Source: Candidatus Krumholzibacteriia bacterium
GTDB taxonomy: Bacteria > Krumholzibacteriota > Krumholzibacteriia > JAJRXK01
Assembly: GCA_041484665.1 (NCBI GenBank)
Contig: JBGPIA010000001.1
Coordinates: 608,001 to 672,000, forward strand
Length of the DNA: 64,000 nt
Reading direction: 5' to 3'
The notes under the pieces are model-generated. The model was not told the origin of the DNA. It made no database searches and saw only the letters and a program-made list of their open reading frames with translations. This document shows positions 38,331 through 57,526 of this stretch, one piece after another. The translations under genes were made by a program, and so were the position numbers. Position 1 is the first letter of the stretch; the number at the start of each line of letters is the position of its first letter.

Positions 38331-38699
38331 CGCCTCACCCCGCTTCGACGTGGGAGCCTTGGACCGTGCTCAATATGGGGCCCGGGCGGGCGCCGGGCAA
38401 GAGCAGTTGGGGTCGAGCGGCCAGCCTGCGCACGTGCGCCCCAGGCGTTGCCACGCCCGTAGAATGCTGTGGAGGGAACGCCGTCGGGACAGGTACGCTG
38501 CGACGTGACGGCAGGTGCGTGCCGTCGCACACGGCCGCCGTTGGGCGGCCGTCGCGCATCGCGCAGGCACAGGGGACTGCGGCGTGGACGGAATCCTCCA
38601 GCCACGATCGCACGCGACCCCACGTGCGGCACTCGGTGGGTGACGGACTGCAGCGACCAGGTGGGCGGCCGAGTGGAAACGCAGGCGACCCCGCGCGGG

Positions 38700-40367
38700 A
38701 TGCGCGCGCCGTTTCGGCATCGCGACTTCCGCTTCCTCGTGGCGGGCCAGGCCATCTCGCAGACGGGCGACTGGCTCTACAACGTCGCGCTGCTGGTGCT
38801 GGTGTTGCGGATGACGCACTCCCCCACGTGGGTCGCCGCCGCCGGCATCGTGCGATTGCTACCGTACGTGGTGTTCGGGACGTTGGGCGGTCTGATCGCA
38901 GACCGCTACCCACGCAAGCGCGTGATGGTCGTGGCGGATCTGGCGCGGGCCGGGCTGATGGGGCTGCTCGTCGTCGTGGCCCTCACGTCGGGGTCGGCAG
39001 CGCTGGCGATCCTGCTGGCCGGCGCCTCGACCATGTTCTCGGTGGCCTACCACCCGGCCGAGGATGCCGCGCTCCCGCTGCTCGTGGAGGAGGACGAGCT
39101 CTCGGCGGCGAACTCGATCACGTCCACCATCCAGAACCTGTGTGTCGCTCTGGGTCCGGCAGTTGGCGGCGTGCTGCTGATGCTGGGGTCGCCTGCCATG
39201 GCGTTCGCGGTGAACGCCGTGACGTTTCTCGGGTCCGCCGTGGCGATCTCGCAAATCAAGACGGAGCTGGGGCCCTCCGCTGGCGCTTCCGACGCGCCCG
39301 ACAGGAAGTCGCCCACCACGTGGATGCGCATCCGCGAGGGAATCGAGCCGGTCCGATCCTCGGCGGGCGTCCTGGTGCTGGTCGTGGCGTGGGGTGCCAA
39401 CGGGTTCCTGGACGGCGCGCAGATCGTGCTGTTCGCCCTGCTGGCAACCGGCCGGCTGGGGATCGGCGAGGGGGGAATGTCGTTCCTCTATGCCGCGCTG
39501 GGCGTAGGCGGGGTCCTCGCGGCGGGCCTCGCGCACCGGGCCGCCAGCCGCCCGCGGCAGGGACTCGCGCTCGCGATGGCGACGTTTGCCACGGCGTTCG
39601 CGTTCGCCGGGCTCGCGTTCACGCGCACACCGGCTCTGGCCTACGTGCTGGCCGCCATCGACGGCGCGGCCACGATCGTGCTGGACGTGCTCGTCGTCAC
39701 GTCGATCCAGCGGATGCTGGGCAACGAGGTCATGGGGCGGGCGCTCGGGGCGGTGGACTCCCTGGTGGTAGGCCTGGTCCTCGCTGGATCGGTGGTGACG
39801 CCTCCGATCGTGGCAGTGGCCGGTGTGCGGGCGGCGGTGTTGGTGTCCAGCACGCTCGTGGCGTCGGTCGGCATGCTGCTGCTCGTGCGGGCTCGGGCGA
39901 TCGACCAGCGCGCCGCCGCGCGTGTCGAGCGGCTGGCGCCGCGGGTCAAGCTCCTGGACTCACTCGATATCTTCATCGGCGCGTCGCGCGCGACGTTGGA
40001 GGCCTTGGCCGAGGAATTGACGAGGGTATCTGCGCCCGCCGGCACGGTGGTGATCCGCGAGGGCGACGAGCCCGACGACCTGTTCGTGGTGGGCTCCGGG
40101 CAGCTGTTGGTGACGACCGTGGGCCGCGGCCGCGTGGGTGAGCTGAAGGCGGGCGAGTACTTCGGCGAAATCGGCCTGCTGCACAGGATCCCTCGGACCG
40201 CGACCGTCACGGCTTCGACTGACTGCGAGCTGTACCGGATGCGCGGCGAGAGCTTCCTGCGCTTGGTGAACGAAGGCGGGTCGCAGTCCTCGAGCCTCTT
40301 GAGCAACCTGCAGTCTCGGCTCGCGAGCACGCGCGCAGCGCGCCGTGCGGAGCCGGCCGCGCCGTGA
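38700..40367 (+). CDS. MFS transporter fused to C-terminal cyclic-nucleotide-binding domain
   Basis: GGLIADRYPRKRVM (MFS motif A), about 12 TMs, VIREGDEPDDLFVV.SG...YFGEIGLL..IPRTATV. Confidence 0.9.
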   Translation: MRAPFRHRDFRFLVAGQAISQTGDWLYNVALLVLVLRMTHSPTWVAAAGIVRLLPYVVFGTLGGLIADRYPRKRVMVVADLARAGLMGLLVVVALTSGSAALAILLAGASTMFSVAYHPAEDAALPLLVEEDELSAANSITSTIQNLCVALGPAVGGVLLMLGSPAMAFAVNAVTFLGSAVAISQIKTELGPSAGASDAPDRKSPTTWMRIREGIEPVRSSAGVLVLVVAWGANGFLDGAQIVLFALLATGRLGIGEGGMSFLYAALGVGGVLAAGLAHRAASRPRQGLALAMATFATAFAFAGLAFTRTPALAYVLAAIDGAATIVLDVLVVTSIQRMLGNEVMGRALGAVDSLVVGLVLAGSVVTPPIVAVAGVRAAVLVSSTLVASVGMLLLVRARAIDQRAAARVERLAPRVKLLDSLDIFIGASRATLEALAEELTRVSAPAGTVVIREGDEPDDLFVVGSGQLLVTTVGRGRVGELKAGEYFGEIGLLHRIPRTATVTASTDCELYRMRGESFLRLVNEGGSQSSSLLSNLQSRLASTRAARRAEPAAP

Positions 40368-42635: not shown

Positions 42636-42901
42636 CGGGGTGGCTCCTGAGGACTTCTGGTTGGGCTGGGGCTGGGGTGCGCGGGTGGACTGGCGGGTAC
42701 GTTTGTGCTTGGACTGGTGGTTGGAGCGGCGGGTGGAGTCCGTCACGCCCGCCGAACTCCTGGCACTCACGCCGCTTCTGCCGATCACGGACGCAAACAT
42801 GGCAGTTGAGCCACACCGATACAAGGGGTCTCGGGCCGTATCCCCGGGGCGCCCGCGCGCAGGACGGGCTAGCTGCAACCGCATGTGATAGAGTCGATTG
42901 C

Positions 42902-45865
42902 ATGGCACAGCGCTCTGCGGCCTGCCTGGTCGCCCTCTCCTCCCTGCTGAGGGCAGCCGCCGCACCCCATGACACGCGCACTCGCTTCGAGGCCGCAATC
43001 TCCGCGGCCGACCAGACCTATGCCACCACCACCGGAGACACGAAGCGCTCGATCACCCTGCTGGACTCGCTGGTCGCCGACGCGCGCAGCGGGGGCGACT
43101 CCGCCCTCGTACTGCTGGCCGTCTCGGCACGCGGCCGGCAACTGGCCGGCGTCGGCGAGGCGGCGCGCGCCGAAACCGACCTGCGCGCCGCGCTGCGATT
43201 GTCCAGCGCGGCGCGCGATACCCTGCTGCAGTGCAAGGCGCTGCGCTGGCTGGGGTTGGCCATCGCCACGCAGTCGCGCATCGCCGAGTCCGCCTCCTAT
43301 TACACCGAGCTGTTGCGCCTGTCGCTCGCGCGCAAGGACCGACTCTACGAAGGCTACGGCTATTTCGGCCTCGCATACGTCGATCTGTGCGGCGGCAACA
43401 CCGAGGCGGCGCGCCGCGGCTACGAGCGTGCGATCGCCATTTTCCGCGAGCTGGGCCGCACCCGCGACGAGCTCTACGTGCTGGTGGGGATGGGCAGGCT
43501 GCTCGGGGAGGTCGGAGACCTGGAGGCCGCCCGGCGGTGTTTTCTCACCATCGTCGAGCGTGGCCGGCAGGTGGGGGCGCTCCAACCGCAGGTCGAGGCC
43601 CTGAACAATCTGGCCCTGCTCGAGCAGACCATCGGCGACCCCGGCCTCGCCCTGCAGCATTTTCGCGAAGCCTACGGGCTGTCCCGCGCGACGTCGAACA
43701 CCGATGACATGATCATGGCCCGGATCAATATCACAAGTGCCCTGACCCAGCTCGGCCACTTCGACGCCGCCGTTGCGGTGCTGGACTCCGCACTGCAGGT
43801 CTGCCGCGACCAGCACTACGTGGAGAAGGAGGCGTGGGTCCTCGACTACTTTGCAGACTTGAGGCGGCAACAAGGCCGGCCGAGGGAAGCGGAAGGGCTC
43901 TACCGCGCCGCGCTGGCGCTGGGCGGCGCGGTCCCGCCGCCTGTACAAGAGACAACTGTGCTGGGACTGGTGGAGAGCATGGGCGACTCCGTGGCTGCGC
44001 TGGCGACGCTGCGGCAGCACGCGGCCCGGCTGCGCCCGTTTCTCGCTTCGGGCAGAGCCGACCTCTTCGAATGCGAAGAGGGCATCCTGCTCCAGCGTCT
44101 GCGGCGGCACGCGCAAGCCCTGCGTCTGCTGCTGGCGGCGGATCGCGTGGCGCGGCGCACTGGCGCCATCACTGACCGTCTGCGGCCGCTCGTGCACGCG
44201 GCAGAGTGCTGGCGCGCTCTGGGACGACCCGACAGCGCGCTGATCGCGCTGCGGGGCGCCGAGCAGGTGTGGGAGACGCAGCGCGGGCTGCCCCGCGATC
44301 CACAATGGCGCGAGCTGCGCGGAACGCTGGCGCGGCAGTTCTACGGAAGCATGGCCGAGCTGCTGCTGGCCTACCCCCCTGAGCTGCCGCCCCAGGCGCG
44401 CACGCGGCGGGCGTTCGACGCGCTGCAGAAGTTCAAGGCACGCTCCCTGCTCGAGCGCATGACCGGCCCTGGCCTGGCCGCGGGCCACGTTCCGTTACCC
44501 GAGCAGCTGTCGATCCGCACCCTGGCACAAGTCCAGGACGCGGTGCTCGGCGACGGCGAGCTTCTCCTCGATTTCTTCGTCTCCACGGACGCCTCGTTCC
44601 TGTTTGCCGTGACGCGCAGCGAGTGCCGCGCGATCCGGCTGGTCGATGGGCCCGCGCTGGAGACCGCCGTCGCGCTCGCGCGCGACCTGTGGGCGACCGC
44701 GCCGCCGGAGCGCGCGCCCGCCGAGCAGGAGCCGCTCCGGCAAGCCGGGGTCGCGCTCGCGCGCATGCTGCTGGGCGAGGTGAGCGATCTCGTGCGCGCC
44801 AGCCGGCGCGTGATCGTCGCGCCCGATGGTCCGCTCAACCTCGTCGCCTTCGGCGCGCTGCCGGCGCCACGGATGGGGTCCAGCGGATCCGCGTCCGCCA
44901 CCAGATCCGCGGCCCTGGAGGTGGCCAGCCCGGTTTCCCTGCTGCGTGACCGCGAGCTCTGGAGCGTTCCCTCGGCGACCGTGCTCGCGCAGCTGCGGGC
45001 CCGACCAATGGGCGCGGCCGGTGACGTGCACGGACACAACGCGCCCGCCGTGCCGCCGGCGCCGGATCGCATCTTTGCCTGCGCACTCGGCGCGACCGCC
45101 GCCGGCCGCGCGCTACCCGGCGCGGTCGGAGAGGTCCGCTGGCTCGCGCGCCGCTATCGCGGAGTGGATCTCGCCCTGGACGATTTTAGCCGAGGCGGGC
45201 AGGCGCTCGTCGAGGCGCTGCCGGGGCACCGGGTCGTGCATCTGGCGACGCACACCGTGGTCGATGATCAGCGCCCCTGGAACTCCGGGCTGTTCCTCGG
45301 TTCGACCCGTGGCGGCGCCGTGGACGCCTACCTGCGCGCCAGCGAGATCGCCGAGCTGAGGCTTTCGGCCGATCTCTGCGTGCTGTCCGGCTGCGAGTCG
45401 GCGGGCGGCCGCGTACTGTCGGGCGAGGGTGTGCAGGGGCTCTGCGGCGCCTTCCTCAGCGCTGGGGTCCCGGCCGTGCTCGCGACGCTGTGGCCGGTCG
45501 ATGACCGCTCGACGGCGCGCATCGTGCGCGAGTTCTATTGCGCACTTGGCCGCGGCGGCAGCGCCGCCGAGGCGCTGCGCCGCGCGCAGCTCACCGTGGC
45601 CACGGACCCGCGCACGAGCCATCCGTTCTTCTGGGCGGGGTTCGTCCTGACCGGCGACGGCATGGCGCACGTGCGGCTGGCGCGCCGAGTCCCGCCCGCG
45701 GCCCCGGCTTGCGTGGCCGGCGCAGCCCTGGTGGCGATCGTGGCGCTGGCCCGTGCCCGACGTCGACGTCGTGCCCGGCGCAACGCGCGCGACCGGGTGT
45801 TGGCGTCCGCGCCGCTTCGTCGCGCCACCCTGTCCGACGCCGGCGCCACCGAGATCCGTCCGTGA
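42902..45865 (+). CDS. TPR + CHAT (caspase-like) protease with C-terminal TM anchor
   Basis: TPR-like repeats (EALNNLALL), IVAPDGPLNLVAF.AL, VVHLATHT, LCVLSGCESAGG, LATLWPVDD, HPFFWAGFVLTGD, then TM + RRRRR. Confidence 0.9.
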   Translation: MAQRSAACLVALSSLLRAAAAPHDTRTRFEAAISAADQTYATTTGDTKRSITLLDSLVADARSGGDSALVLLAVSARGRQLAGVGEAARAETDLRAALRLSSAARDTLLQCKALRWLGLAIATQSRIAESASYYTELLRLSLARKDRLYEGYGYFGLAYVDLCGGNTEAARRGYERAIAIFRELGRTRDELYVLVGMGRLLGEVGDLEAARRCFLTIVERGRQVGALQPQVEALNNLALLEQTIGDPGLALQHFREAYGLSRATSNTDDMIMARINITSALTQLGHFDAAVAVLDSALQVCRDQHYVEKEAWVLDYFADLRRQQGRPREAEGLYRAALALGGAVPPPVQETTVLGLVESMGDSVAALATLRQHAARLRPFLASGRADLFECEEGILLQRLRRHAQALRLLLAADRVARRTGAITDRLRPLVHAAECWRALGRPDSALIALRGAEQVWETQRGLPRDPQWRELRGTLARQFYGSMAELLLAYPPELPPQARTRRAFDALQKFKARSLLERMTGPGLAAGHVPLPEQLSIRTLAQVQDAVLGDGELLLDFFVSTDASFLFAVTRSECRAIRLVDGPALETAVALARDLWATAPPERAPAEQEPLRQAGVALARMLLGEVSDLVRASRRVIVAPDGPLNLVAFGALPAPRMGSSGSASATRSAALEVASPVSLLRDRELWSVPSATVLAQLRARPMGAAGDVHGHNAPAVPPAPDRIFACALGATAAGRALPGAVGEVRWLARRYRGVDLALDDFSRGGQALVEALPGHRVVHLATHTVVDDQRPWNSGLFLGSTRGGAVDAYLRASEIAELRLSADLCVLSGCESAGGRVLSGEGVQGLCGAFLSAGVPAVLATLWPVDDRSTARIVREFYCALGRGGSAAEALRRAQLTVATDPRTSHPFFWAGFVLTGDGMAHVRLARRVPPAAPACVAGAALVAIVALARARRRRRARRNARDRVLASAPLRRATLSDAGATEIRP

Positions 45866-45889
45866 CGAATCCGGCGATGAGGTCTCTCT
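45862..45889 (+). promoter_or_regulatory. Candidate ECF-sigma promoter, copy 1 (autoregulatory, near-leaderless)
   Basis: GTGA-N16-GTCTCTCT ending 4 nt before the sigma ATG; same motif at 47391 and 49493. Confidence 0.65.
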
Positions 45890-45893
45890 GACC

Positions 45894-46505
45894 ATGGACG
45901 CGGACGACCGTGCCGGGGCCGTGTCGGGGCTGACCGACGACGAGCTGGTCCAGCTCGCCGTACGCGAGACCCAAGCCGGTGGTGGCGGACCGGCCGCCGG
46001 CGAGCTCTTGAGCCGCTACCAGCTGCGAGTCTATCGGTGGTGCCGCCGCTATGCGCGCGACCACGAGCGGGCGCTCGACCTCAGCCAGGACGTCCTGCTG
46101 CTCGCGTACCGCGCGCTGGGCTCCTTCGAAGGGAGGGCGCCGTTTTCGGCCTGGCTGTTCACCATTACGCGACGTCGCTGCATCCGGGCCATGCGGCCCG
46201 TGAGCATGCTGCGTTACGACGACGCCGAGCTGGAGCTGATCCCCGACGACCGCCCTGGAGCCGACCGTGCCCTGGAGGACGAGGATGAGCTGCAGCGCAT
46301 GATGGAGCTCGTGCGCAGTTGCCTCGACCCGGTAGAGCAGAAGGCGCTGATGATGCGCTGCATGGAGCGCATCCCGGTGGATGAGATCACGCAGCTTCTG
46401 GGAATCGCAGCGGCATCGGGCGCGCGCGGCGTCCTGCAGCAGGCACGTCGCAAGCTGCGCGCGGCATCGCACGAGGATGACGCTGGAGACGGGAGAACCC
46501 CATGA
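45894..46505 (+). CDS. ECF-family RNA polymerase sigma factor
   Basis: TDDELV, ALDLSQDVLL.AYRALGSFEGRAPFSAWLFTI (region 2), region 4 EITQLLGI...ARRKLR. Confidence 0.9.
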   Translation: MDADDRAGAVSGLTDDELVQLAVRETQAGGGGPAAGELLSRYQLRVYRWCRRYARDHERALDLSQDVLLLAYRALGSFEGRAPFSAWLFTITRRRCIRAMRPVSMLRYDDAELELIPDDRPGADRALEDEDELQRMMELVRSCLDPVEQKALMMRCMERIPVDEITQLLGIAAASGARGVLQQARRKLRAASHEDDAGDGRTP

Positions 46506-47278
46506 GCGAACGATGCCTGACCGTCGAGGAATTGGCGGTGGCCCTGCAGCAGTCGGAGACGAGCCCAGGGCGCCGCCATCTCGCCGGGTGTCCGCGCTGC
46601 CAATCGGTCCTGATGTCCTACCGGGAGTTCCTCGAGCCCACCGCGACGCTCCCCGAGGGGGAGCTGCGGGAGGCCAACGCCAGGTTGCAGGAGCAGCTGG
46701 AGAAGCAGCTCGCTCTGGCCGGGCAGCCGGCGGGGCCGGCGGGGCGCTCGACAGCGGCACGACGCCCGCGTACGCACCGCGCGTGGCGCGACCGCCTCCC
46801 TGGCTGGCGCACGCTGCGCCCCGCGTGGACCGTGGCGCTCGGTGCGCTGGCCGTCGTGGCCGTGATCGCTGCGATCGAGCTCGCGCCCGACCGTTCGCGC
46901 CCGATCGTGTTGCGCGAGCAGGGAGAGCAGCGCGGAGTTCCCACGGGACTTCCGGCGCTGCTCCCAGTCGAGCCCGCGCCGGACGGAGGCTTGACGATTC
47001 GCTGGCAGCCGGTGTCCGGGGCAGATTCCTACGAGGTGCGGGTCTACTCCACGCAGCTGCAGGAGGTCGCACGCCTGGGCCCCGTGAGCGGGACCTCGTT
47101 CCTCTTGCGCCGCGCCGCGCTTCCCGCCGCGGCGGCGCCGGCCGGCGCGCCCGCGGGCACGTCGGCGGGCACGTCCGCCGCGGCGGCGCAGGACACCTTC
47201 CTGGTGCGCGTGGCCGCGCAGCGCGGCGGGGCGCAAATCGGCCTCTCCCACGTGACGAGTGTTCGACTGACGCGCTGA
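46502..47278 (+). CDS. Zinc-finger (ZAS-type) transmembrane anti-sigma factor
   Basis: ATGA overlap with the sigma gene; C...HLAGCPRC (HxxxCxxC); one TM; extracytoplasmic beta domain (IRWQPVSGADSYEVRVY). Confidence 0.85.
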   Translation: MSERCLTVEELAVALQQSETSPGRRHLAGCPRCQSVLMSYREFLEPTATLPEGELREANARLQEQLEKQLALAGQPAGPAGRSTAARRPRTHRAWRDRLPGWRTLRPAWTVALGALAVVAVIAAIELAPDRSRPIVLREQGEQRGVPTGLPALLPVEPAPDGGLTIRWQPVSGADSYEVRVYSTQLQEVARLGPVSGTSFLLRRAALPAAAAPAGAPAGTSAGTSAAAAQDTFLVRVAAQRGGAQIGLSHVTSVRLTR

Positions 47279-47389
47279 GCGGAACCCACCGTACGCTTCC
47301 CTCCACGCGCGGTCGCCTGTACGTGAGCCGCGATCGACGTGAACTCCCGTGCGCGTCGGCGTGCGCCGGGGTGCGCCCCATCGGCATGG

Positions 47390-47420
47390 TGTGATCCAGC
47401 GCCGACCGCTGTCTCTCTTC
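47390..47420 (+). promoter_or_regulatory. Candidate ECF-sigma promoter, copy 2
   Basis: TGTGA-N16-GTCTCTCTTC about 100 nt upstream of ATG 47518. Confidence 0.65.
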
Positions 47421-47517
47421 GAGCAGAGCCGCCGATCCGCATGCTCCTCATCCCCACGCACGGTCCAGGAACGGCGTCACTCCCGGGCCTGCGACCGACC
47501 CCACAGGAGGGTCAATC

Positions 47518-49434
47518 ATGACTTGGCATTTCTCATCGTCTCCGGCCGCGCTGCGAGCTGTGCTCTCGGCGGTGGCCAGCTTGCTCCTCGCGCTCGATCC
47601 CGCCGGCATCGTTGCGGCCGGATCGCCGCCCAGCGCGGGGCCCGGCGCGCCGGCCCCCGGCAGTGCACGCATTGCCAGCAGCCCGCTCCCCAGGCTCGGG
47701 GTCGCGCCCAAGTCGGCCCCGCCCTCCGGCTTCACCTACCAGGGCCAGCTGCGCAACGGGCTCGGCGTGGTCAGTGGGCCGTGCGATCTCCAATTCTCGC
47801 TGTTCGATGCGCCGGCTGCGGGCGCTCAAGTTGGCACCACCCAGACCAGGCTCGGCGTCACCGTGGACAACGGGGTCTTGACCGTCCAGCTCGACTTCGG
47901 GGCCGGCGCGTTCCAAGGCGACGCGCGGTGGCTGGAAATCGCGGTGCGGTCTCCGTCGGGAGGCGGAAGCTACACCACGCTCACGCCGCGGCAGGCGGTG
48001 ACGGCTGCTCCACAGGCCCTGACGCTGCGCCCCGGCGCGCAGATTCGCACCGCCAGCGAGCCAATCGGGCTCACGGTGAGCGCGTCGGACGTCGCGTGGG
48101 TCGCCCCGGTCGGCGTGATGGCGACCGGCGGCACCAGCACGAATACGTTCCCGGGACAGCCTACCGGTGTGTTCGGTGAATCCGCCAACGGCACCGGGCT
48201 CCTGGGGTACAGCCAGAACGGGATCGCCATCGTGGGTCAATCCGATCTGAACGACGGCGTGCAGGGCATCAGCCAGGGCTCCAACGGGGTGTCCGGCTTC
48301 TCGGCAAAGGTCGGGGCGAGCGGCGTGTACGGCGAGAACAGCGCCGGTGGATACGGAGTCGCTGGACGCGCGTCCGGGAGCGGCATCGGCGTGTTCGGCG
48401 AAAACTTCGACTCCAACGGCTGGGCAGGGCGTTTCAACGGCAGGACGCTGATGAGTGGCGACCAGACTGTGCTCGGAAACCAGATCATCACATTCGACCA
48501 ATCAATTGCCGGTAGCCAGGACGTTGCCGGCGGCCAAACCGTAAGTGGCCCGCTGTCCGCGATGAGCGATGTCAGCGTAGGGGGCAACCAGTCGTTCGGC
48601 TCCGTGACGCGGCAGATGCTGAATCTGTGGGGGACCCAATACGGCGTCGGTGTCCAGAACGCCACCTTCTATTCCCGCAGCGGGGGCGCGTACGCCTGGT
48701 ACCAAGGGGGTACGCACAGCAACAGCCCCAATGACCCCGGACTGGGCGGGATCCCGCTCATGAACCTCAGTGCCAGCGGCAGGCTCAGCACGCTCAGCGG
48801 AATGACCGGTGGCACGCCGACCCCCGGCCAGAGCGGCGTGAGCGGCTCCAACACGGCGGCCTTCGACGCGTCCTTCGGTTCGGCGGGCGTGCTCGGCACG
48901 AGCACCCAAAATGTCGGCGTGATCGCCCAGAGCTCGAACTTCCGCCCCTTCATGGCGTTCGGCAGCAATCTGCTGGATCCAAAGTTCTACATCGAGAACA
49001 ACGGAAACGTGCGCGCCGACGGGACCTTCTCCTCACCGGCGGCCGACTTCGCCGAGATGATGCCGGCCGGTGAAGTCCTCGAGCCCGGCGACGTGCTGGC
49101 GATCGGAGCCGACGGCGCGCTCGTCCGCTCCCGCGCGCCATACCAGCGCAGCGTGGTCGGCGTGTACTCGACCAAGCCGGCGTTCCTCGGCGGATCGCAG
49201 GAAGGTGGCAGGACCGCGGGGCAGGTGCCCCTCGCGGTCGTCGGCATTGTGCCGGTGAAGGTCACGGCTTCCAATGGCCCGATCCGGCCGGGGGACCTGC
49301 TCGTGGCCTCCTCCAGCCCGGGGCGCGCCATGCGCGCCGATGACGCTCCATCCATCGGATCGGTGATCGGCAAGGCGCTACAGCGTCTGGACGACGGCGC
49401 CGGGACAATCCAGGTCGTCATCATGCTCCAGTAG
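47518..49434 (+). CDS. Exported fibre-like protein (FTYQG N-domain, Gly-rich beta repeats, C-terminal peptidase-G2-like chaperone), paralog 1
   Basis: Signal-like N-terminus, GFTYQGQL, GVxG repeats, ADFAE...GDVLAIG...VGVYSTKP...GIVPVKV...GDLLVAS...IGKAL; AGGAGG SD. Confidence 0.8.
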   Translation: MTWHFSSSPAALRAVLSAVASLLLALDPAGIVAAGSPPSAGPGAPAPGSARIASSPLPRLGVAPKSAPPSGFTYQGQLRNGLGVVSGPCDLQFSLFDAPAAGAQVGTTQTRLGVTVDNGVLTVQLDFGAGAFQGDARWLEIAVRSPSGGGSYTTLTPRQAVTAAPQALTLRPGAQIRTASEPIGLTVSASDVAWVAPVGVMATGGTSTNTFPGQPTGVFGESANGTGLLGYSQNGIAIVGQSDLNDGVQGISQGSNGVSGFSAKVGASGVYGENSAGGYGVAGRASGSGIGVFGENFDSNGWAGRFNGRTLMSGDQTVLGNQIITFDQSIAGSQDVAGGQTVSGPLSAMSDVSVGGNQSFGSVTRQMLNLWGTQYGVGVQNATFYSRSGGAYAWYQGGTHSNSPNDPGLGGIPLMNLSASGRLSTLSGMTGGTPTPGQSGVSGSNTAAFDASFGSAGVLGTSTQNVGVIAQSSNFRPFMAFGSNLLDPKFYIENNGNVRADGTFSSPAADFAEMMPAGEVLEPGDVLAIGADGALVRSRAPYQRSVVGVYSTKPAFLGGSQEGGRTAGQVPLAVVGIVPVKVTASNGPIRPGDLLVASSSPGRAMRADDAPSIGSVIGKALQRLDDGAGTIQVVIMLQ

Positions 49435-49491
49435 GCGCTCCCGGCCGCCCGCCAGCGCGTGGCCGGCTTGGCGCGACGGGTCGTTCGGATT

Positions 49492-49522
49492 TGTGACGTG
49501 GCGTCGCTGGGCGTCTCCCTTC
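49492..49522 (+). promoter_or_regulatory. Candidate ECF-sigma promoter, copy 3
   Basis: TGTGA-N16-GTCTCCCTTC about 120 nt upstream of ATG 49644. Confidence 0.65.
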
Positions 49523-49643
49523 CGTCAGCCGGGCAATCCGCTCGATCGGCGGCTCGATCCCCGCGGGCCGGGGGTCTCCCGCCTCTGGCCCGTCACCCTG
49601 GCGCCATCGTTGCGGCGCCTCGCGCCAACCAGGAGGGCTCAGC

Positions 49644-51606: not shown

Positions 51607-52218
51607 ATGCGAACCACGAGACTCCAACGCAGGAGCCCCCGCCCGCCGCTCCTCGCGCTGGCGGGGGCGGCCACGGCGATCGCCCTCGCCACGGCCGCGC
51701 CGGCCTTCGCGCAAACCGGCGGCGGGTACGATCTCACCTGGAACACCATCGACGGCGGCGGAGCGACCTTCAGCACCGGCGGCGGCTTCACCTTGGGCGG
51801 CACGATCGGCCAGCCCGATGCGGGGCTGTTGACCGGCGGGTCGTTCACGCTGCGCGGCGGCTTCTGGGGCGGCGGTCCGGTCGCCACGGGCGTGCCCGAG
51901 CCGGGCGACCGGCCCGGGAACGACCAGCCCGCGCTCCCGCTGGTCCAGCGCCTCTACCCCAATGTCCCCAATCCATTCAACCCGCGGACGGCCATCGCGT
52001 TTGACCTCCCTCATCCCAGCTCGGTTCGGCTGGAGATCTTCAATCTGCGCGGCGAGCTGGTGCGCACGCTGGTGCGCGAGGACCGCGCCCCCGGTCATCA
52101 CACGGTGATCTGGGAGGGAAACGACGACGGCGGACGAGCGGTGGCCAGCGGCTCGTACATCCTTCGCCTATCCACCCAGGAGGGGGTCCACCGGGAGAAG
52201 GTCATCCTGGTCCGTTGA
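51607..52218 (+). CDS. Small exported protein: 'W.TIDGGG...GTIGQPDAG...GGFW' module plus FlgD-Ig/T9SS-like domain
   Basis: AGGAGG SD; signal peptide AFA-Q; PNPFNPRTAIAFDL...W.G.DD.GR.VASGSY. Confidence 0.85.
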   Translation: MRTTRLQRRSPRPPLLALAGAATAIALATAAPAFAQTGGGYDLTWNTIDGGGATFSTGGGFTLGGTIGQPDAGLLTGGSFTLRGGFWGGGPVATGVPEPGDRPGNDQPALPLVQRLYPNVPNPFNPRTAIAFDLPHPSSVRLEIFNLRGELVRTLVREDRAPGHHTVIWEGNDDGGRAVASGSYILRLSTQEGVHREKVILVR

Positions 52219-52490
52219 CCTGACCTTTGTAGGCGTACGCGGGCGGGCGGCGCGTCTGCCGCCGCCCTCCACGTCCCCTCCCCGTACGGGGTGGCCCGCC
52301 CTCCAGCCGGCAAGAAGTTCCCACCCGCCCCGTGCAGCGCTGCCGCGGATGCCCGCGGTGCCCCTCGACCCATCCCGAACTGGCGGTCCGGTACGGGCAG
52401 CCCTGACCGTGTCTTGACATCCCGCTCGGGCTGCGGCCTATTGAAATCCCCCTCGACGGCCGCTGTGGTTGAGCGGCACGTCGTTTGCCC

Positions 52491-53510
52491 ATGCCCGCTG
52501 CGATGCCCGTCACACTGCCGGCCCCTCGGCGCGCGGCGCGCGCTGGCGCCATCGCCCTGCTGCTGGCGACGGGGGTAGGCTGTGGCCGGCCGCCGGACCT
52601 GCCTCTGCGCATCGGAATCAATCCGTGGCCCGGGTACGAGCTGCTCTACCTCGCCGCGGAGAAGGGCTTTTTCGAGCAAGAAGGCGTCAAGGTCCGCCTC
52701 GTGGAATACACGTCGCTGGGCGACACGCGCCGCGCCTTCGAGCTCGGCCGGCTGGATGGCATGACCTGCACCCTCATCGAGCTCAGCGAGGTGCGCCGGC
52801 GAACGCCGCTCTCTCCCAGCGCGGTGCTCGTGCTGGATAACTCCATGGGTGCCGATGTCCTGCTGGCCGGGCCGGGTACGGCATCGGTGGAGCAGCTGCG
52901 CGGGCGTCGCGTCGGGGTGGAGACGGGATCGCTGGGGGTCTACCTCCTGGTGCGGGCGCTGGAGATGTACGGCCTGCGCATGGAGGACGTGGTGCTCGTC
53001 GCCAGCGACCCCCCCAGCATGGGTGCTGACTTCGCCGGCGGAACGCTGGACGCCATCGTGTCCTACCCACCGTACGCCACCGAGATCCTGCGCGACGGCC
53101 GGGCGCATGTGCTGTTCAGCAGCGCCCAGATCCCGGGCGAGGTCGTCGACGTCCTCGCGGTTGACGCCGCTGCGGCTGCGCACCGCGCCCGCGAGCTTAC
53201 CGGCGTGATTCGCGCCTGGGAGCGGGCGCGGGTCTACGCCACCGAGCACGCCGACGAGACGCAGCGCCGCATGGCCGAGCGCGAGCGCGTCTCACCCGAG
53301 GAATTGCGCGCATCGCTGGCCGCGATCCGCATCCTCCCGCTGGCGGAGCAGCCCCCGCTCTTCGCGCCGGGCGCTGCGCTGCAACAGATCTTCGCGCGCC
53401 TGCAGGCGGTCATGCGCGCGACGGGCCAGGACAGCCTGCCTGCCGCTTCCCGCGACGGCGGACCCGCCGTTTTCATCTCCGAACCGCTCGACTCGGCCCT
53501 GCAGCGATGA
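52491..53510 (+). CDS. Periplasmic substrate-binding lipoprotein (NMT1/SsuA-like)
   Basis: Lipobox GVGC, INPWPGYELLYLA.EKGFF, DNSMGAD, FSSAQIPGEVVDVL; ATGA overlap with the kinase. Confidence 0.88.
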   Translation: MPAAMPVTLPAPRRAARAGAIALLLATGVGCGRPPDLPLRIGINPWPGYELLYLAAEKGFFEQEGVKVRLVEYTSLGDTRRAFELGRLDGMTCTLIELSEVRRRTPLSPSAVLVLDNSMGADVLLAGPGTASVEQLRGRRVGVETGSLGVYLLVRALEMYGLRMEDVVLVASDPPSMGADFAGGTLDAIVSYPPYATEILRDGRAHVLFSSAQIPGEVVDVLAVDAAAAAHRARELTGVIRAWERARVYATEHADETQRRMAERERVSPEELRASLAAIRILPLAEQPPLFAPGAALQQIFARLQAVMRATGQDSLPAASRDGGPAVFISEPLDSALQR

Positions 53511-56500
53511 TCGTGCTGCCCCGCATCCGGAGATTCTGCGGATCGTTGGGCTGCCGACTGCTGTTTCCACTAATCGTGCTGGGGTCGGCCGTGGCCGTGC
53601 TGGCCGGCCTGACGGGGCACCGCATGCTGGTGCGGCAGGCGGATCTCCAGCTCGAGCGCCGCGCGAGCGCCGTGGCCGACGCGGTGGTCTATAGCCTGAA
53701 CACCGTGGACAAGTACTCGGAGTTCACCCGCTTCGTCAGCTTCTTGGCCGGCGAGCGCGACATCGAGGCGGTGGTCGTGACCGGCGGCAGCCCGCCGCGG
53801 GTGATCGCCTCGAACAAGGCGGAGTGGAACGGCCGGCTGCTCTCCGACCCGCCGCGCGAGCAGGTGGGGGCCCACCTGTTCGGCGATCTCGCCACCCGTC
53901 CGACCGCGGCGCATCGCCACGACGAGACGGGCATGTACCTGTACAGCAGGGCCTTCGCGCTCCACGATCCTGGGCCGCGCGGCATCGAGCTGACGTCGGG
54001 CATCGTTGCGGTCGAGCTGGCCGCCGACGCGACGGTCGGCCCGGTCACGCGCACCTTTGGCGGGTTGACGGCCCTGCTGCTGGTGGGGATCCTGGTGTTG
54101 TCGCTGATCGTCTACGCCTCCCTGCACCGGCAGGTCCTGAAGCCTACGACTGCCATCCGGCGCGCCATGGAGCGCCGCGCCGCGGGCGATGCGTCCGTCT
54201 ACGCGCCGGTGACCGGCGCGCCGGAGATCGGGGACGTTGCCCGTTCGCTGAATTCCATGCTCGATGCGCTGCGCCAGAGCAGCGAGCGCCTCGAGCTGAT
54301 CGTGCGGGCCACGCGCGACGGGATCTACGACTGGGACATTCCCAGCGGCCGCATCATGCGCAACGAAGTCTACGGCGATGCCTTCGGCGGCGGGAATCCC
54401 GTCCCTACGGACCTGGATTGGTGGCGCGAGCGCGTCCACCCGGAGGACCGGCCGGGCATCGAGGCGAGCCTGCAGGCGGCTCTGTCAGGCCAGGCGCGCG
54501 TGTGGTCCAACGATTACCGCTTCCGCCGCGAGTCGGGCGAGTATGCCTTCGTCCTGGACCGGGGCTTCATCGCGCGCGGACCGGCCGGCGAACCCCAGCG
54601 CATGATCGGCGCGATGACCGACATCACAGCCTGGCGGCAGGCAGAGCAGGAGCGCGACCGTTTCTTCACGCTCTCCCTGGACATCCTCTGCCTCGTCGGG
54701 CTCGACGGCTACTTCAAGCGCGTGAACCCCGCCTTCGAGCGGATGCTCGGCTACACCGGCGACGAGCTCTTGTCCAGACCGTTCGTCGAGTTCGTGCACC
54801 CCGAGGACCTCGAGTTGACACGGCGCGAGTTCGCGAAGCTGGCCGGCGGTACCGAGGTCCGCGCCTTCGAGAACCGTTACGTCTGCAAGGATGGTTCCTA
54901 CCGCTGGCTCAGCTGGTCCTGCCCACCGCCCCCGCCTGGCGAGACGGTCGTGTACGCGGTCGCGCGCGACGTCACCGATCGCAAGCTCGTGGAGAACTTC
55001 CTGCTGCGCACGCGGACCCTGCTGCAGTCATTCGTGGAGCAGACGCCTGCTGCGGTCGCGATGCTCGACAAGGACCTGCGCTATCTGGCGGTGAGCAAGC
55101 GCTGGATGGAGGACTACAAGCTCCCCTATGCCAACCTGCTCGGACGCCATCACTACGAGGTCTTTCCCGAGATCGGCGCGAACGTAGATTGGCAGGAGGT
55201 CTACCAGCGCTGCCTTAAGGGGGAGGTGCAGCGGCGCGAGGAGGATCGTTTCGTGCGGGCGGACGGCACCGAGACCTGGCTGCGCTGGGAGGTCCGCCCT
55301 TGGCTCGAGGAGGACGGCGCAATCGGCGGTCTGATCATGTTCACCGAGGACATCACCGCCCGCAAGCACGCCGAGCAGGCCCTGCAGCTGAGCGAGCAGC
55401 GCTGGCAGTTCGCGCTGGAGGGCTCCGGCGACGGTGTCTGGGACTGGGACGTTGCGGCCAGTCGGGTGTTCTACTCCAGGCGCTGGAAGGAGATGCTCGG
55501 ATACGACGAGCATGACGTCGGGGACGGGCTAACGGAGTGGGAGTCGCGCGTCCATCCGGACGACAAGGCGCGCGTGATGGGCGAGATCGAGCGCCACTTC
55601 CGCGGCGAGACGGCGCAGTACGTGGCCGAGCACCGCGTGCTGTGCAAGGACGGCAGCTTCAAATGGGTGCTGGATCGTGGCAAGGTCATGGGGCGCGGGC
55701 CGGACGGACGTCCGCTGCGCGTGGTCGGTACGCACACCGACATTACCCTACGGCGCCTGGCCGAGCAGGCCCTGCGCGACGCCAAGGAGGCCGCCGAAGC
55801 GGCGAACCTGGCCAAGAGCGAGTTCCTGGCCAGCATGAGCCACGAGATCCGCACGCCGATGAATGGCGTGATGGGAACCCTTGCGCTGCTGCTGGACTCG
55901 CCGCTCAGCGCGGAGCAGCACGAGCTGGCGGAGATGGGGCTGCGCTCGGGCCAGTCGCTCATGACCACGATCAACGAGATCCTCGACTTCTCCAAGATCG
56001 AAGCCGGGCGACTCACGCTGGAAGCGATCCCCTTCGATCTCGGCCAGCTCGTGGAGGAGACGGTACAGCTGCTGGCCCGCCCCGCGGAGCAGAAGCGGCT
56101 CGAGCTCGTCCTGCAGATGGCCCAAGACGTGCCCCGGCGTCTGGTGGGTGACCCGGCACGGATCCGTCAGGTGCTCAACAACCTCATCGGCAATGCCGTC
56201 AAGTTCACCGAGCGCGGACACGTCTGCGTGCAGGTCAGCTGCGAGTCGCCGCGGGCGGGGCGGCCGATCGTGCGCTTTGCGGTGCAGGACACGGGGATCG
56301 GAGTCCCGCAGGACAAGCTCTCGATCATCTTCGACAAGTTCACGCAGGCCGATTCCTCAACGACGCGCCGCTATGGCGGCACCGGCCTGGGTCTGGCGAT
56401 CTGCAAGCTGCTCGTCGAGCTGATGGACGGCCAGATCGGGGTGGTGAGTGATCCGGGCAAGGGCTCGACCTTCTGGTTCGGCCTGCCGGTGACTCCCTCG

Positions 56501-57526
56501 GCCGACGCCGTGCCATGGCGTCCGCCCGATCTGGAGGGCAAGCGGGTGTTGATCGCGGCGCCCCAGCCCGTCGTGCGCCGCGCCCTGTGCGACACCCTCG
56601 AAGGGCTGGGGGCGCAGGCGCAGGAGGCGCAGAGCGCGGAGGCGGCTCTGGAGCTGCTCCGCGCCGCGCACGCAGCGGGCCGCGCGATCGAGCTATTGCT
56701 GCTCGATGAGGACCTTCCCGATGGCTCGGCGCGCGAGATCCTCGCCGCGGTGCAGGGCGGCGCCCGGGTCGGGCAGCCGGCGGTGTTGGCGCTCTACCGG
56801 CTTTCGTCGGGCGGCGACGCGCCCGCGCCGCCGCAGCGCGGCGTCTACGGCCGCCTCTCCAAGCCGGTGCTGCCCGCCCGCCTGGCGGAAGCGCTCGAGC
56901 AGTTCCGACCGGACCCGATCGGGCAGCGCCAGGCGACCCTGACCCAGACGGCGGACTCCGCCGCCGGCCGCGTGCGCGCGAGCGCGCAGCCGCACCGATC
57001 ACTGCCACAGGCGCGGATCCTGGTCGCCGAAGACAATGCGGTGAACCAGAAGGTGGCGGCGAAGATGCTCGAACGTCTCGGTTGCCACGCGGACGTCGCC
57101 GCTGACGGGCGGGAGGCCCTGCGCCGTGCGGCCGAGACGCGCTACGACCTGCTGCTCATGGACTGCCAGATGCCCGACGTCGATGGTTACGAGGCGACCC
57201 GGCAGATCCGCAGCCGCGAGGCGCTCGCGCTGCGCGCCACGCCGCTTGCGCCCAACGGCCGGCACGCCGCGGGTGACCGGGCACCTGGTTCCTGCGTGAT
57301 CGTAGCCATGACGGCACATGCCATGCCCGGCGACCGCGAGCGCGCGCTCGCCGCCGGCATGGACGACTATCTGCCCAAGCCGGTCACGCTGGACAAGCTG
57401 CGCGAGATCCTCACGCGCTGGCTGCCCGGACGGATGCCGGATCCGATCGAAGCGGCGCACCTCGACCCGGTCCAAGTCGGCGGCCCCACGCGCACGGGGG
57501 ACCCGACTGGTTACGTCGGAAAGTAA
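53507..57526 (+). CDS. Hybrid sensor histidine kinase (TM-HAMP-4xPAS-HisKA-HATPase-REC-REC)
   Basis: [37 protein letters not shown]; final receiver ILVAEDN...LMDCQMP..DG...KPV. Confidence 0.95.

Follow-up and report, generated by a model that had tools for sequence, protein, structure and literature searches.

A predicted autoregulated ECF sigma factor circuit linking three local promoter-like sites, a TPR-CHAT protease gene and secreted, likely fibre-forming proteins in a Krumholzibacteriia bacterium

The DNA analysed here is a stretch of 64,000 nucleotides (nt) from Candidatus Krumholzibacteriia bacterium (contig JBGPIA010000001.1, positions 608,001 to 672,000), called the window below and numbered from its first letter. 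It carries the gene of a sigma factor belonging to the extracytoplasmic function (ECF) type at position 45894 together with three copies of the bipartite motif GTGA-N16-GTCTCYCT, one before the sigma gene and one before each of two paralogous genes further downstream. The genes of the locus are the following, with protein lengths in amino acids (aa).

42902..45865, + strand: TPR-CHAT caspase-like protease, 987 aa, CHAT match with E 7e-53
45894..46505, + strand: ECF sigma factor, 203 aa, TIGR02937 match of 75 bits at a cut-off of 42.9
46502..47278, + strand: predicted anti-sigma factor, 258 aa, without Pfam match, with a zinc-type N-terminal domain, a membrane helix and a fibronectin-III domain
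47518..49434, + strand: target 1, secreted protein, likely a trimeric fibre, 638 aa
49644..51596, + strand: target 2, paralogue of target 1 (55% identity), 650 aa
51607..52218, + strand: small secreted protein with a FlgD-Ig/T9SS-like tail, 10 nt downstream of target 2

The 45894 sigma belongs to group 4 (ECF), as it matches TIGR02937 above the cut-off and its profile also matches solved ECF sigmas. Its named homologues come from Ca. Eisenbacteria, Krumholzibacteriota and Latescibacterota, and the records of this family compared here are metagenome-assembled. In the source genome of 5,449,360 bases, 36 matches to sigma region 2 and 24 to CHAT were counted, and several of these are paired. The three motif copies, with the promoter elements that we assign to them below, are listed here.

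45862..45889, + strand: site 1, predicted autoregulatory ECF promoter, -35 element GTGAC at 45862-45866, G(-14) at 45882
45884-45887, + strand: -10 core CTCT of site 1, -12 to -9 in RpoE numbering, with the sigma ATG 6 nt further on
47391..47418, + strand: site 2, predicted to drive fibre gene 1, with GTGAT at 47391-47395, G(-14) at 47411, core CTCT at 47413-47416; predicted start at about 47423, leader of about 95 nt, AGGAGG at 47505-47510
49493..49520, + strand: site 3, predicted to drive fibre gene 2 and the FlgD-tail gene, with GTGAC at 49493-49497, G(-14) at 49513, core CTCC at 49515-49518; predicted start at about 49525, leader of about 120 nt, AGGAGG at 49631-49636

The exact pattern, first noticed in an inspection of the letters alone (the sequence-only reading), matches the window exactly three times, always on the + strand, and none of 100 shuffled sequences gave any match. 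A scan of the whole 5.45 Mb genome, which that reading had proposed, returned the same three copies and nothing else; with 17 other spacer lengths (8-25) there were six genome matches altogether, none or one for each length. Because the pattern was drawn from these three sites, the match counts of the exact form are flattering. With two mismatches allowed, the window held nine matches versus 7.4 expected, so that additional degenerate copies do not exceed chance. The placement relative to genes is as described at the outset: site 1 stops 4 nt short of the sigma ATG, and between the ends of sites 2 and 3 and the ATGs at 47518 and 49644 lie 99 and 123 nt, respectively.

Could the three copies be by-products of other features, with site 1 explained by a stop codon, site 2 by a weak terminator and site 3 as the relic of a duplication? 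At site 1 the TGA (45863-45865) indeed doubles as the stop codon of the CHAT gene, and the same holds for 9 of 41 orthologous sites, but in the other 32 it does not. Site 2 was flagged as terminator-like, yet none of the three sites folds better than its shuffles (z -0.3, 0.4 and 0.6), and a hairpin or terminator was rejected on this ground. The two fibre genes are duplicates, and a single duplication may have given rise to both sites 2 and 3; their leaders, however, share little beyond the motif except the ribosome-binding region. Chance is excluded by the conservation and by the genome-wide ranking given next, and we assign the by-product explanation a negligible probability.

For the conservation analysis, 46 of 80 loci with at least 42% identity were taken as orthologues, leaving out 4 loci of Acidobacteria type and 30 distant ones. 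Counted with a relaxed pattern that was chosen after inspecting those loci, a two-box motif related to that of the window stands before 32 of the 46 orthologous sigmas versus 2.5 expected. The exact pattern precedes none of the 46 and is, on the sequences compared, private to the lineage of the window. In a hold-out set, for which the pattern was fixed beforehand, 56 of 80 metagenome loci were taken and 53 had enough upstream sequence; the motif was found before 41 of these 53 sigmas versus 3.7 expected. Three of 11 further relative loci duplicated earlier ones and were not recounted.

Genome-wide ranking places the sites near the top of the source genome. The matrix built from 40 orthologous sigma sites, applied with a 16-nt gap, ranks sites 2 and 3 first and seventh. 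A matrix built from 13 sites of sigmas with Arg98, taken from other genomes only, ranks the three sites 1, 4 and 5 among ~10.9 million strand positions; ranks 2 and 3 fall inside open reading frames (ORFs), and the three sites are the top three matches in upstream intergenic DNA as defined by our own gene calls. Orthologue conservation, the ranks under a matrix free of window sequence and this position at the head of the upstream intergenic matches all argue for the claim that the copies are the cognate promoter of the 45894 sigma, and we consider the sites very probably to be working promoters of this sigma.

The promoter part of the original interpretation therefore stands, but its choice of GTCT as the -10 box after a 16-nt spacer probably does not: the -10 box is most likely G-N-CTCY, with the CTCY core beginning 18 nt after GTGA, in line with the family pattern GTGA-N16-G-N-[G/C]TCY-N6-start. 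The distance from GTGA to GTCY is mostly 18 nt in orthologues and apparently 16 nt in the window, so that in the earlier register the family GTCT box would have been kept and the spacer shortened from 18 to 16 nt. In all three window sites GTCT does stand at 16 nt, 16 is also the gap at which a G-type matrix gives them its best score, and spacers of 17 and 19 exist within the family. When the sites are anchored on GTGA alone, a different picture is obtained. Where the sigma has Arg or His at residue 94 (14 sites, including the three of the window), position 17 is G in all, position 19 is C in 12, position 20 is T in 12 and position 21 is C in 13, whereas the T at position 18 that the earlier register requires is present in only 8. 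Sites of sigmas with Asn94 have G at position 19 in 39 of 56 cases. Of the 34 sites with an in-frame start in range (window included), 19 have it 28 nt after GTGA (14 of 31 in the hold-out set), and this distance is the same in the Arg/His94 and the Asn94 groups, as it is in the window. Since the start distance is kept while position 19 has changed, the spacer appears to have kept its length, with G replaced by C as the opening base of the -10 core. Spacer shortening as the source of the apparent 16 nt was set aside after the GTGA anchoring. The linker between sigma2 and sigma4 has its usual length, ~49 residues in all classes, and was likewise discarded as a cause of a spacer change. The spacer concordance of 18 of 25 (9.5 expected, p 1e-4) is no clean test of the spacer, as the C-core class is mixed in it with true spacer classes.

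Support for the revised register also comes from the sigma side. In an alignment to solved RpoE-type sigmas, residues 94 and 98 occupy the positions of Asn80 and Asn84 of RpoE, and the window sigma has Arg at both. Todor et al. (2020) measured all substitutions at RpoE Asn84 and describe that this residue sets the -13/-12 bases (PMC7776599). Summed over -13, the table in their Dataset S3 gives Arg 0.49 for C and 0.18 for G, and Asn, Ser, Thr and Asp 0.72-0.81 for G. In our family residue 98 best separates C from G, with C for Arg in 7 of 8 cases and G for Asn, Ser, Asp or Thr in 34 of 35; three rows with A were left out of this count, and four other alignment columns score close behind. Residue 94 alone was considered as the -12 determinant and set aside as weaker than residue 98. 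When 88 sigma/promoter pairs from other genomes were compared with the Asn84 table, positions 18/19 fitted it (log-likelihood -170 versus -212 permuted, reached in 0 of 3000 permutations), while seven other offsets gave p 0.17-0.99; because the fit is confined to positions 18/19, position 19 corresponds to -12. Scored with the same table, the 12 Arg98 sites reach -29.9 when read in the revised register versus -37.2 in the earlier one, and the three window sites -7.4 versus -9.5. We therefore consider the shortened spacer unlikely. Most likely, as judged from these alignments, the -12 base changed from G to C in the lineage of the window together with the appearance of Arg at the Asn84 position, without shortening of the spacer.

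Several observations weigh against a simple reading of this code. The permutation of the 88 pairs ignores kinship, and related loci are not independent. A paralogous sigma of the source genome on contig C36 combines Arg98 with Asn94, but its -12 base is G or A; locus L128 has A at -12 in spite of Arg98, and L042 is ambiguous. In the table of PMC7776599 the Arg column is diffuse with large standard deviations. A single origin of the switch was not rejected (p-AU 0.55, 50 of 107 rows, quick tree). The C36, L128 and L042 exceptions mean that Arg98 alone does not force C and that insulation from C36 is uncertain. Among the sites compared, C cores occur solely where residue 94 is also not Asn. The sigma of L105 has Ser98 in the multiple alignment and hence is no Arg98 exception, and the L084 site combines ATGA at -35 with a CTCT core, an anchor that was revised after seeing the data. 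A convergent origin is not claimed: the switch appears in three places on the quick tree, but one clade was not rejected. Whether the G-to-C change at -12 helps to insulate the cassette of the window from the paralogous cassettes of the genome is in our view an evenly balanced question.

Two further variations of the core were seen. In a small clade formed by L009, L016 and L136, residue 98 is Ala, Tyr or Cys and the -13/-12 bases are CA, which the table of PMC7776599 places first or nearly first among the dinucleotides for these residues; by comparison of sequences this clade is a second natural switch. In L050, L085 and L099, which have Tyr at residue 94 (RpoE Asn80), A replaces T at -11 in 5 of 5 sites, and the Asn94 sigmas L004, L089 and L135 likewise have A at -11.

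The revised register bears on two other explanations of the sites. They might be real ECF promoters that are read by a paralogous sigma (those on C36, C46, C1:83777 or C15), as several close paralogues in the genome share the same -35 recognition helix and the C36 sigma also has Arg98. The genome has no copy, however, further than 3.7 kb from the local sigma, the paralogues on C36 and C46 are each accompanied by G-type sites of their own, and across genomes C at -12 tracks the residues of the local sigma; we hold such an assignment to be very unlikely. An operator for another DNA-binding regulator would fit the partial GAC...GTC symmetry of sites 1 and 3, but 32 of 40 orthologous sites read GTGAT, which breaks the symmetry, and the fixed distance to the start codon and the covariation with the residue of the sigma that reads the -10 element fit a sigma promoter. 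The operator explanation has only a very slight probability.

Recognition of the sites by the 45894 sigma would place its own transcript under site 1. With 6 nt from core to ATG and a conserved ATG position, this transcript is predicted to be leaderless or nearly so, as had been suggested from the sequence. RpoE numbering puts +1 at 45896, 2 nt inside the sigma ATG, which speaks against a strictly leaderless form; the leaderless reading therefore needs a start 2 nt earlier. The conserved position of the ATG suggests a start at or just before 45894.

The size of the regulon was examined in the source genome and in the relatives. Upstream of the other fibre/anchor paralogues in the genome, none of nine regions scores above 8.6, and the regulon is therefore local. 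It probably includes the anti-sigma gene and the FlgD-tail gene at 51607, which is probably co-transcribed with target 2; in 4 of the 4 other loci that have a homologue of this gene, it lies at most 2 kb from a fibre gene. A distal candidate is the C-type site at G000:C1:96070 (+), which has a score of 16.0, lacks the G at -14 and lies ~240 nt 5' of a 1031-aa FlgD-tail gene, in a class of regions that makes up 0.5% of positions; this gene possibly belongs to the regulon. In the 46 loci, extra sites scoring at least 16 number 26 in 94,983 nt of upstream DNA versus 8 in 1,204,235 nt of genes (23 loci). They are thus 41-fold denser upstream of genes than inside them, the enrichment for which the sequence-only reading had asked. 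Genes that follow extra sites have a FlgD tail in 12 of 26 cases versus 50 of 524 genes overall, and a hydrophobic N-terminus in 20 of 26 versus 207 of 524; a few are plainly not secreted. In 12 such genes scanned with Pfam, FlgD tails were accompanied by FG-GAP, RCC1, SBBP and CARDB repeats, and two of the genes were without match. Fibre homologues are present in 4 of the 46 loci. In L032 and L038 a site immediately precedes the gene, and L033 has a weaker one. The positions of the sites, the matrix ranking and these extra sites in relatives support the proposed link between the signalling cassette and both fibre genes. By our own gene calls, 197 of the 3988 genes called in the whole source genome have an FlgD-Ig-type tail, a very large set of secreted proteins.

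The description of the targets as fibres, made from the sequence, is likely correct. Pfam, PHROGs and fold searches gave it no support: sequence searches of Pfam, PHROGs and the PDB returned nothing for the fibre proteins, only two sub-threshold NCBIfam rows were seen, and the Pfam Peptidase_G2 model matches none of 85 family members at E 0.05. The best Foldseek E of 0.005 and the best VIA Z of 7.5, obtained with the whole-chain model, cover the N-terminal beta-sandwich alone, and a lone further fibre match was discarded as a low-complexity Gly match. A language-model search with the C-terminal domain, on the other hand, returned Peptidase_G2 chaperone domains at 0.93, with 22 of 30 matches in that family. 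Peptidase_G2-type chaperone domains cap trimeric fibres and cut themselves off. A D-x-A-E motif is near-invariant among the fibre-family members (84-85 of 85). In the monomer model of target 1 the N-terminal beta-sandwich and a C-terminal beta domain are confident, and most of the Gly-rich middle has pLDDT <50. The long targets have 1303 homologues, the named ones mostly hypothetical proteins of Chloroflexota. From the resemblance of the C-terminal domain to Peptidase_G2, the targets are likely trimeric fibres.

The protease and the anti-sigma factor suggest how the sigma may be released. The CHAT dyad His784/Cys831 is intact in the window, and both residues are present in 37 of 37 loci where they could be aligned. 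The window protein has a hydrophobic N-terminus, a C-terminal membrane helix and an Arg-rich tail; among 50 full-length CHAT members, 47 have the hydrophobic N-terminus and 46 the C-terminal helix. On account of these two features the protease is predicted to be most likely membrane-anchored and to face outwards. In the 46 loci its gene stands before the sigma gene in 26, after the anti-sigma gene in 8 and elsewhere in 1. Because it lies upstream of site 1, the CHAT gene of the window is not under this promoter. An extended -10-like element, TG-n-TAGAGT, was found by eye at 42886-42904 (+), 7 nt 5' of the CHAT ATG; it could drive leaderless housekeeping transcription of CHAT, sigma and anti-sigma, and a consensus promoter scan requiring both hexamers found nothing at this position.

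The predicted anti-sigma factor combines a zinc-type N-terminal domain (C5/H26/C30/C33), one membrane helix (106-126), a disordered linker and an outer fibronectin-III domain. Among 73 anti-sigmas, C5 is present in 67, H26 in 63, C30 and C33 in 69 each, and the membrane helix in 72. Arg138 is found in all 73, within a VLR-G consensus; it lies in the low-confidence linker, outside the membrane helix and 12 residues after it. We consider it likely that the 46502 protein holds the sigma at the membrane. An outside signal would then lead the separately encoded TPR-CHAT protease to cut the anti-sigma linker, probably after the invariant Arg138, and an intramembrane protease would complete the degradation of the anti-sigma and free the sigma. 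The freed sigma would read the three promoters, raising its own expression and that of the anti-sigma from a likely leaderless transcript in a positive feedback from site 1, and would switch on the two likely fibre genes with their FlgD-tail partner. Cleavage in trans is proposed because DdvA of Myxococcus xanthus joins the same parts in one chain. The DdvA authors propose, without proof, that CHAT cuts the near-membrane linker before RseP acts, and separases are described in the same paper as cutting after Arg (PMC11506125). In 11 of the 46 loci, a full-length CHAT gene is absent or broken on the strand of the sigma within the fetched flank, which counts against the scheme. As a chain from outside signal through cleavage in trans to the feedback that turns on the surface proteins, the scheme is by analogy about as probable as its opposite. 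Taken as a whole, an explanation in which the sigma reads these promoters to express itself and a regulon of surface proteins, with a CHAT-tripped switch, has a good probability.

Compared with described systems, the circuit type, an autoregulated ECF sigma with a local regulon, is known and ordinary, and the variant found here seems undescribed. Our literature search returned no paper on the ECF family of the window or its promoter; a listing in the supplement of the ECF classification or in Datasets S1-S2 of PMC7776599 is possible. DdvS of M. xanthus is described as acting on four local promoters with GTAA-n16-CGT (PMC6061681). As in DdvS/DdvA, an autoregulated ECF sigma has a small local regulon in which a single bipartite motif recurs in a few copies, the anti-sigma is a single-pass protein with a CHCC zinc-type domain (predicted here), and an extracytoplasmic TPR-CHAT with a His-Cys dyad is the proposed site-1 protease (PMC11506125). 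In contrast to DdvA, the TPR-CHAT is a separate gene with a C-terminal anchor and the outer domain of the anti-sigma is fibronectin-III; in contrast to DdvS, the sites read GTGA, with TC rather than CG at -13/-12 (C at -12), and the targets are secreted fibre-like and FlgD-tail proteins instead of a CBASS/CRISPR-Cas regulon. ECF54 also has a TPR-CHAT gene nearby, and its predicted -10 element CTCC agrees with CTCY, whereas its -35 element is GTATCAG compared to GTGAY here; the classification paper describes ECF54 as 100% Actinobacteria, without putative anti-sigma, with subtilases nearby (PMC7826278) and with a carboxypeptidase-regulatory-like domain at +1, where the window has the zinc-type single-pass anti-sigma candidate. 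ECF11 and ECF22 have similar -35 boxes (GTGATC and TGTGATTTT, respectively) but differ in their -10 elements (CGTA and GCGAAT) and in their anti-sigmas, which are of ChrR type and with four membrane helices, respectively (PMC7826278). In the Type III-E system, the TPR-CHAT protein Csx29 is reported to cut a separate anti-sigma-like protein, Csx30, and thereby to relieve the ECF-like CASP-sigma, which like the sigma of the window has three binding motifs in its own locus (PMC10028731). Csx29 is triggered by Cas7-11 with target RNA, while the partners in the window are predicted outward-facing membrane proteins, and with 10.1 bits against the Csx29 model (cut-off 300) the CHAT protein of the window is not a Csx29. 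Caspase/ECF neighbourhoods of another type have been described (PMC8195603). The natural pairs follow the code of Todor et al. (PMC7776599), that is Asn, Ser, Thr or Asp with G, Arg with C, and Ala, Tyr or Cys with CA; they go beyond it in showing a natural switch inside one family of uncultured phyla and in that C at -12 was seen solely together with a non-Asn residue at RpoE position 80.

Somewhat tentatively, we speculate that these genes represent a portable three-gene module of uncultured phyla of the FCB group, in which a TPR-CHAT acting in trans as site-1 protease would cut a zinc anti-sigma after a juxtamembrane Arg, and of which the copies would switch on adjoining surface proteins and be kept apart by -12 changes that follow the sigma code. 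If this is true, a separate protease and substrate, a predicted cut site and a predicted reporter promoter make the question raised by DdvA, whether CHAT is a site-1 protease, directly testable. The two-protein system with its candidate cut site would be a model for an extracytoplasmic CHAT that opens anti-sigma degradation, a step proposed for DdvA. For an ECF family of Eisenbacteria, Krumholzibacteriota and Latescibacterota, the analysis provides a promoter consensus, a small regulon and a predicted route of activation. As the natural specificity switch follows a laboratory-derived sigma/promoter code, these sigmas are candidates for orthogonal switches.

Paralogous cassettes of CHAT, sigma and anti-sigma are found at G000:C36:5774-10120 and at G000:C46/C49, each with its own site and with a further site before a divergent secreted gene of one family; C46 and C49 are probably adjacent because their contig ends overlap. 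At G000:C15:73272-74738 (-) a 489-aa ORF seemingly joins a sigma of the ECF family of the window to its anti-sigma, at G000:C1:83347-85219 a sigma/anti-sigma pair stands beside a 76-aa CHAT remnant, and at G000:C10:18149-19006 (-) there is an anti-sigma without a called sigma. In the relatives, strong sites at L006:11294 and L010:4293 follow the anti-sigma gene and lie 200-240 nt before a gene resembling that of a leucyl-tRNA synthetase; a small RNA or a lost target may be present there.

Downstream of the regulon in the window and directly adjoining its end, 52485-57526 (+) encodes an NMT1-like binding protein overlapping a 1339-aa HAMP/PAS hybrid histidine kinase, and no copy of the motif was found 5' of these genes. 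On the other side of the locus, 38469-40367 (+) encodes a transporter of the MFS type fused to a C-terminal cyclic-nucleotide-binding domain.

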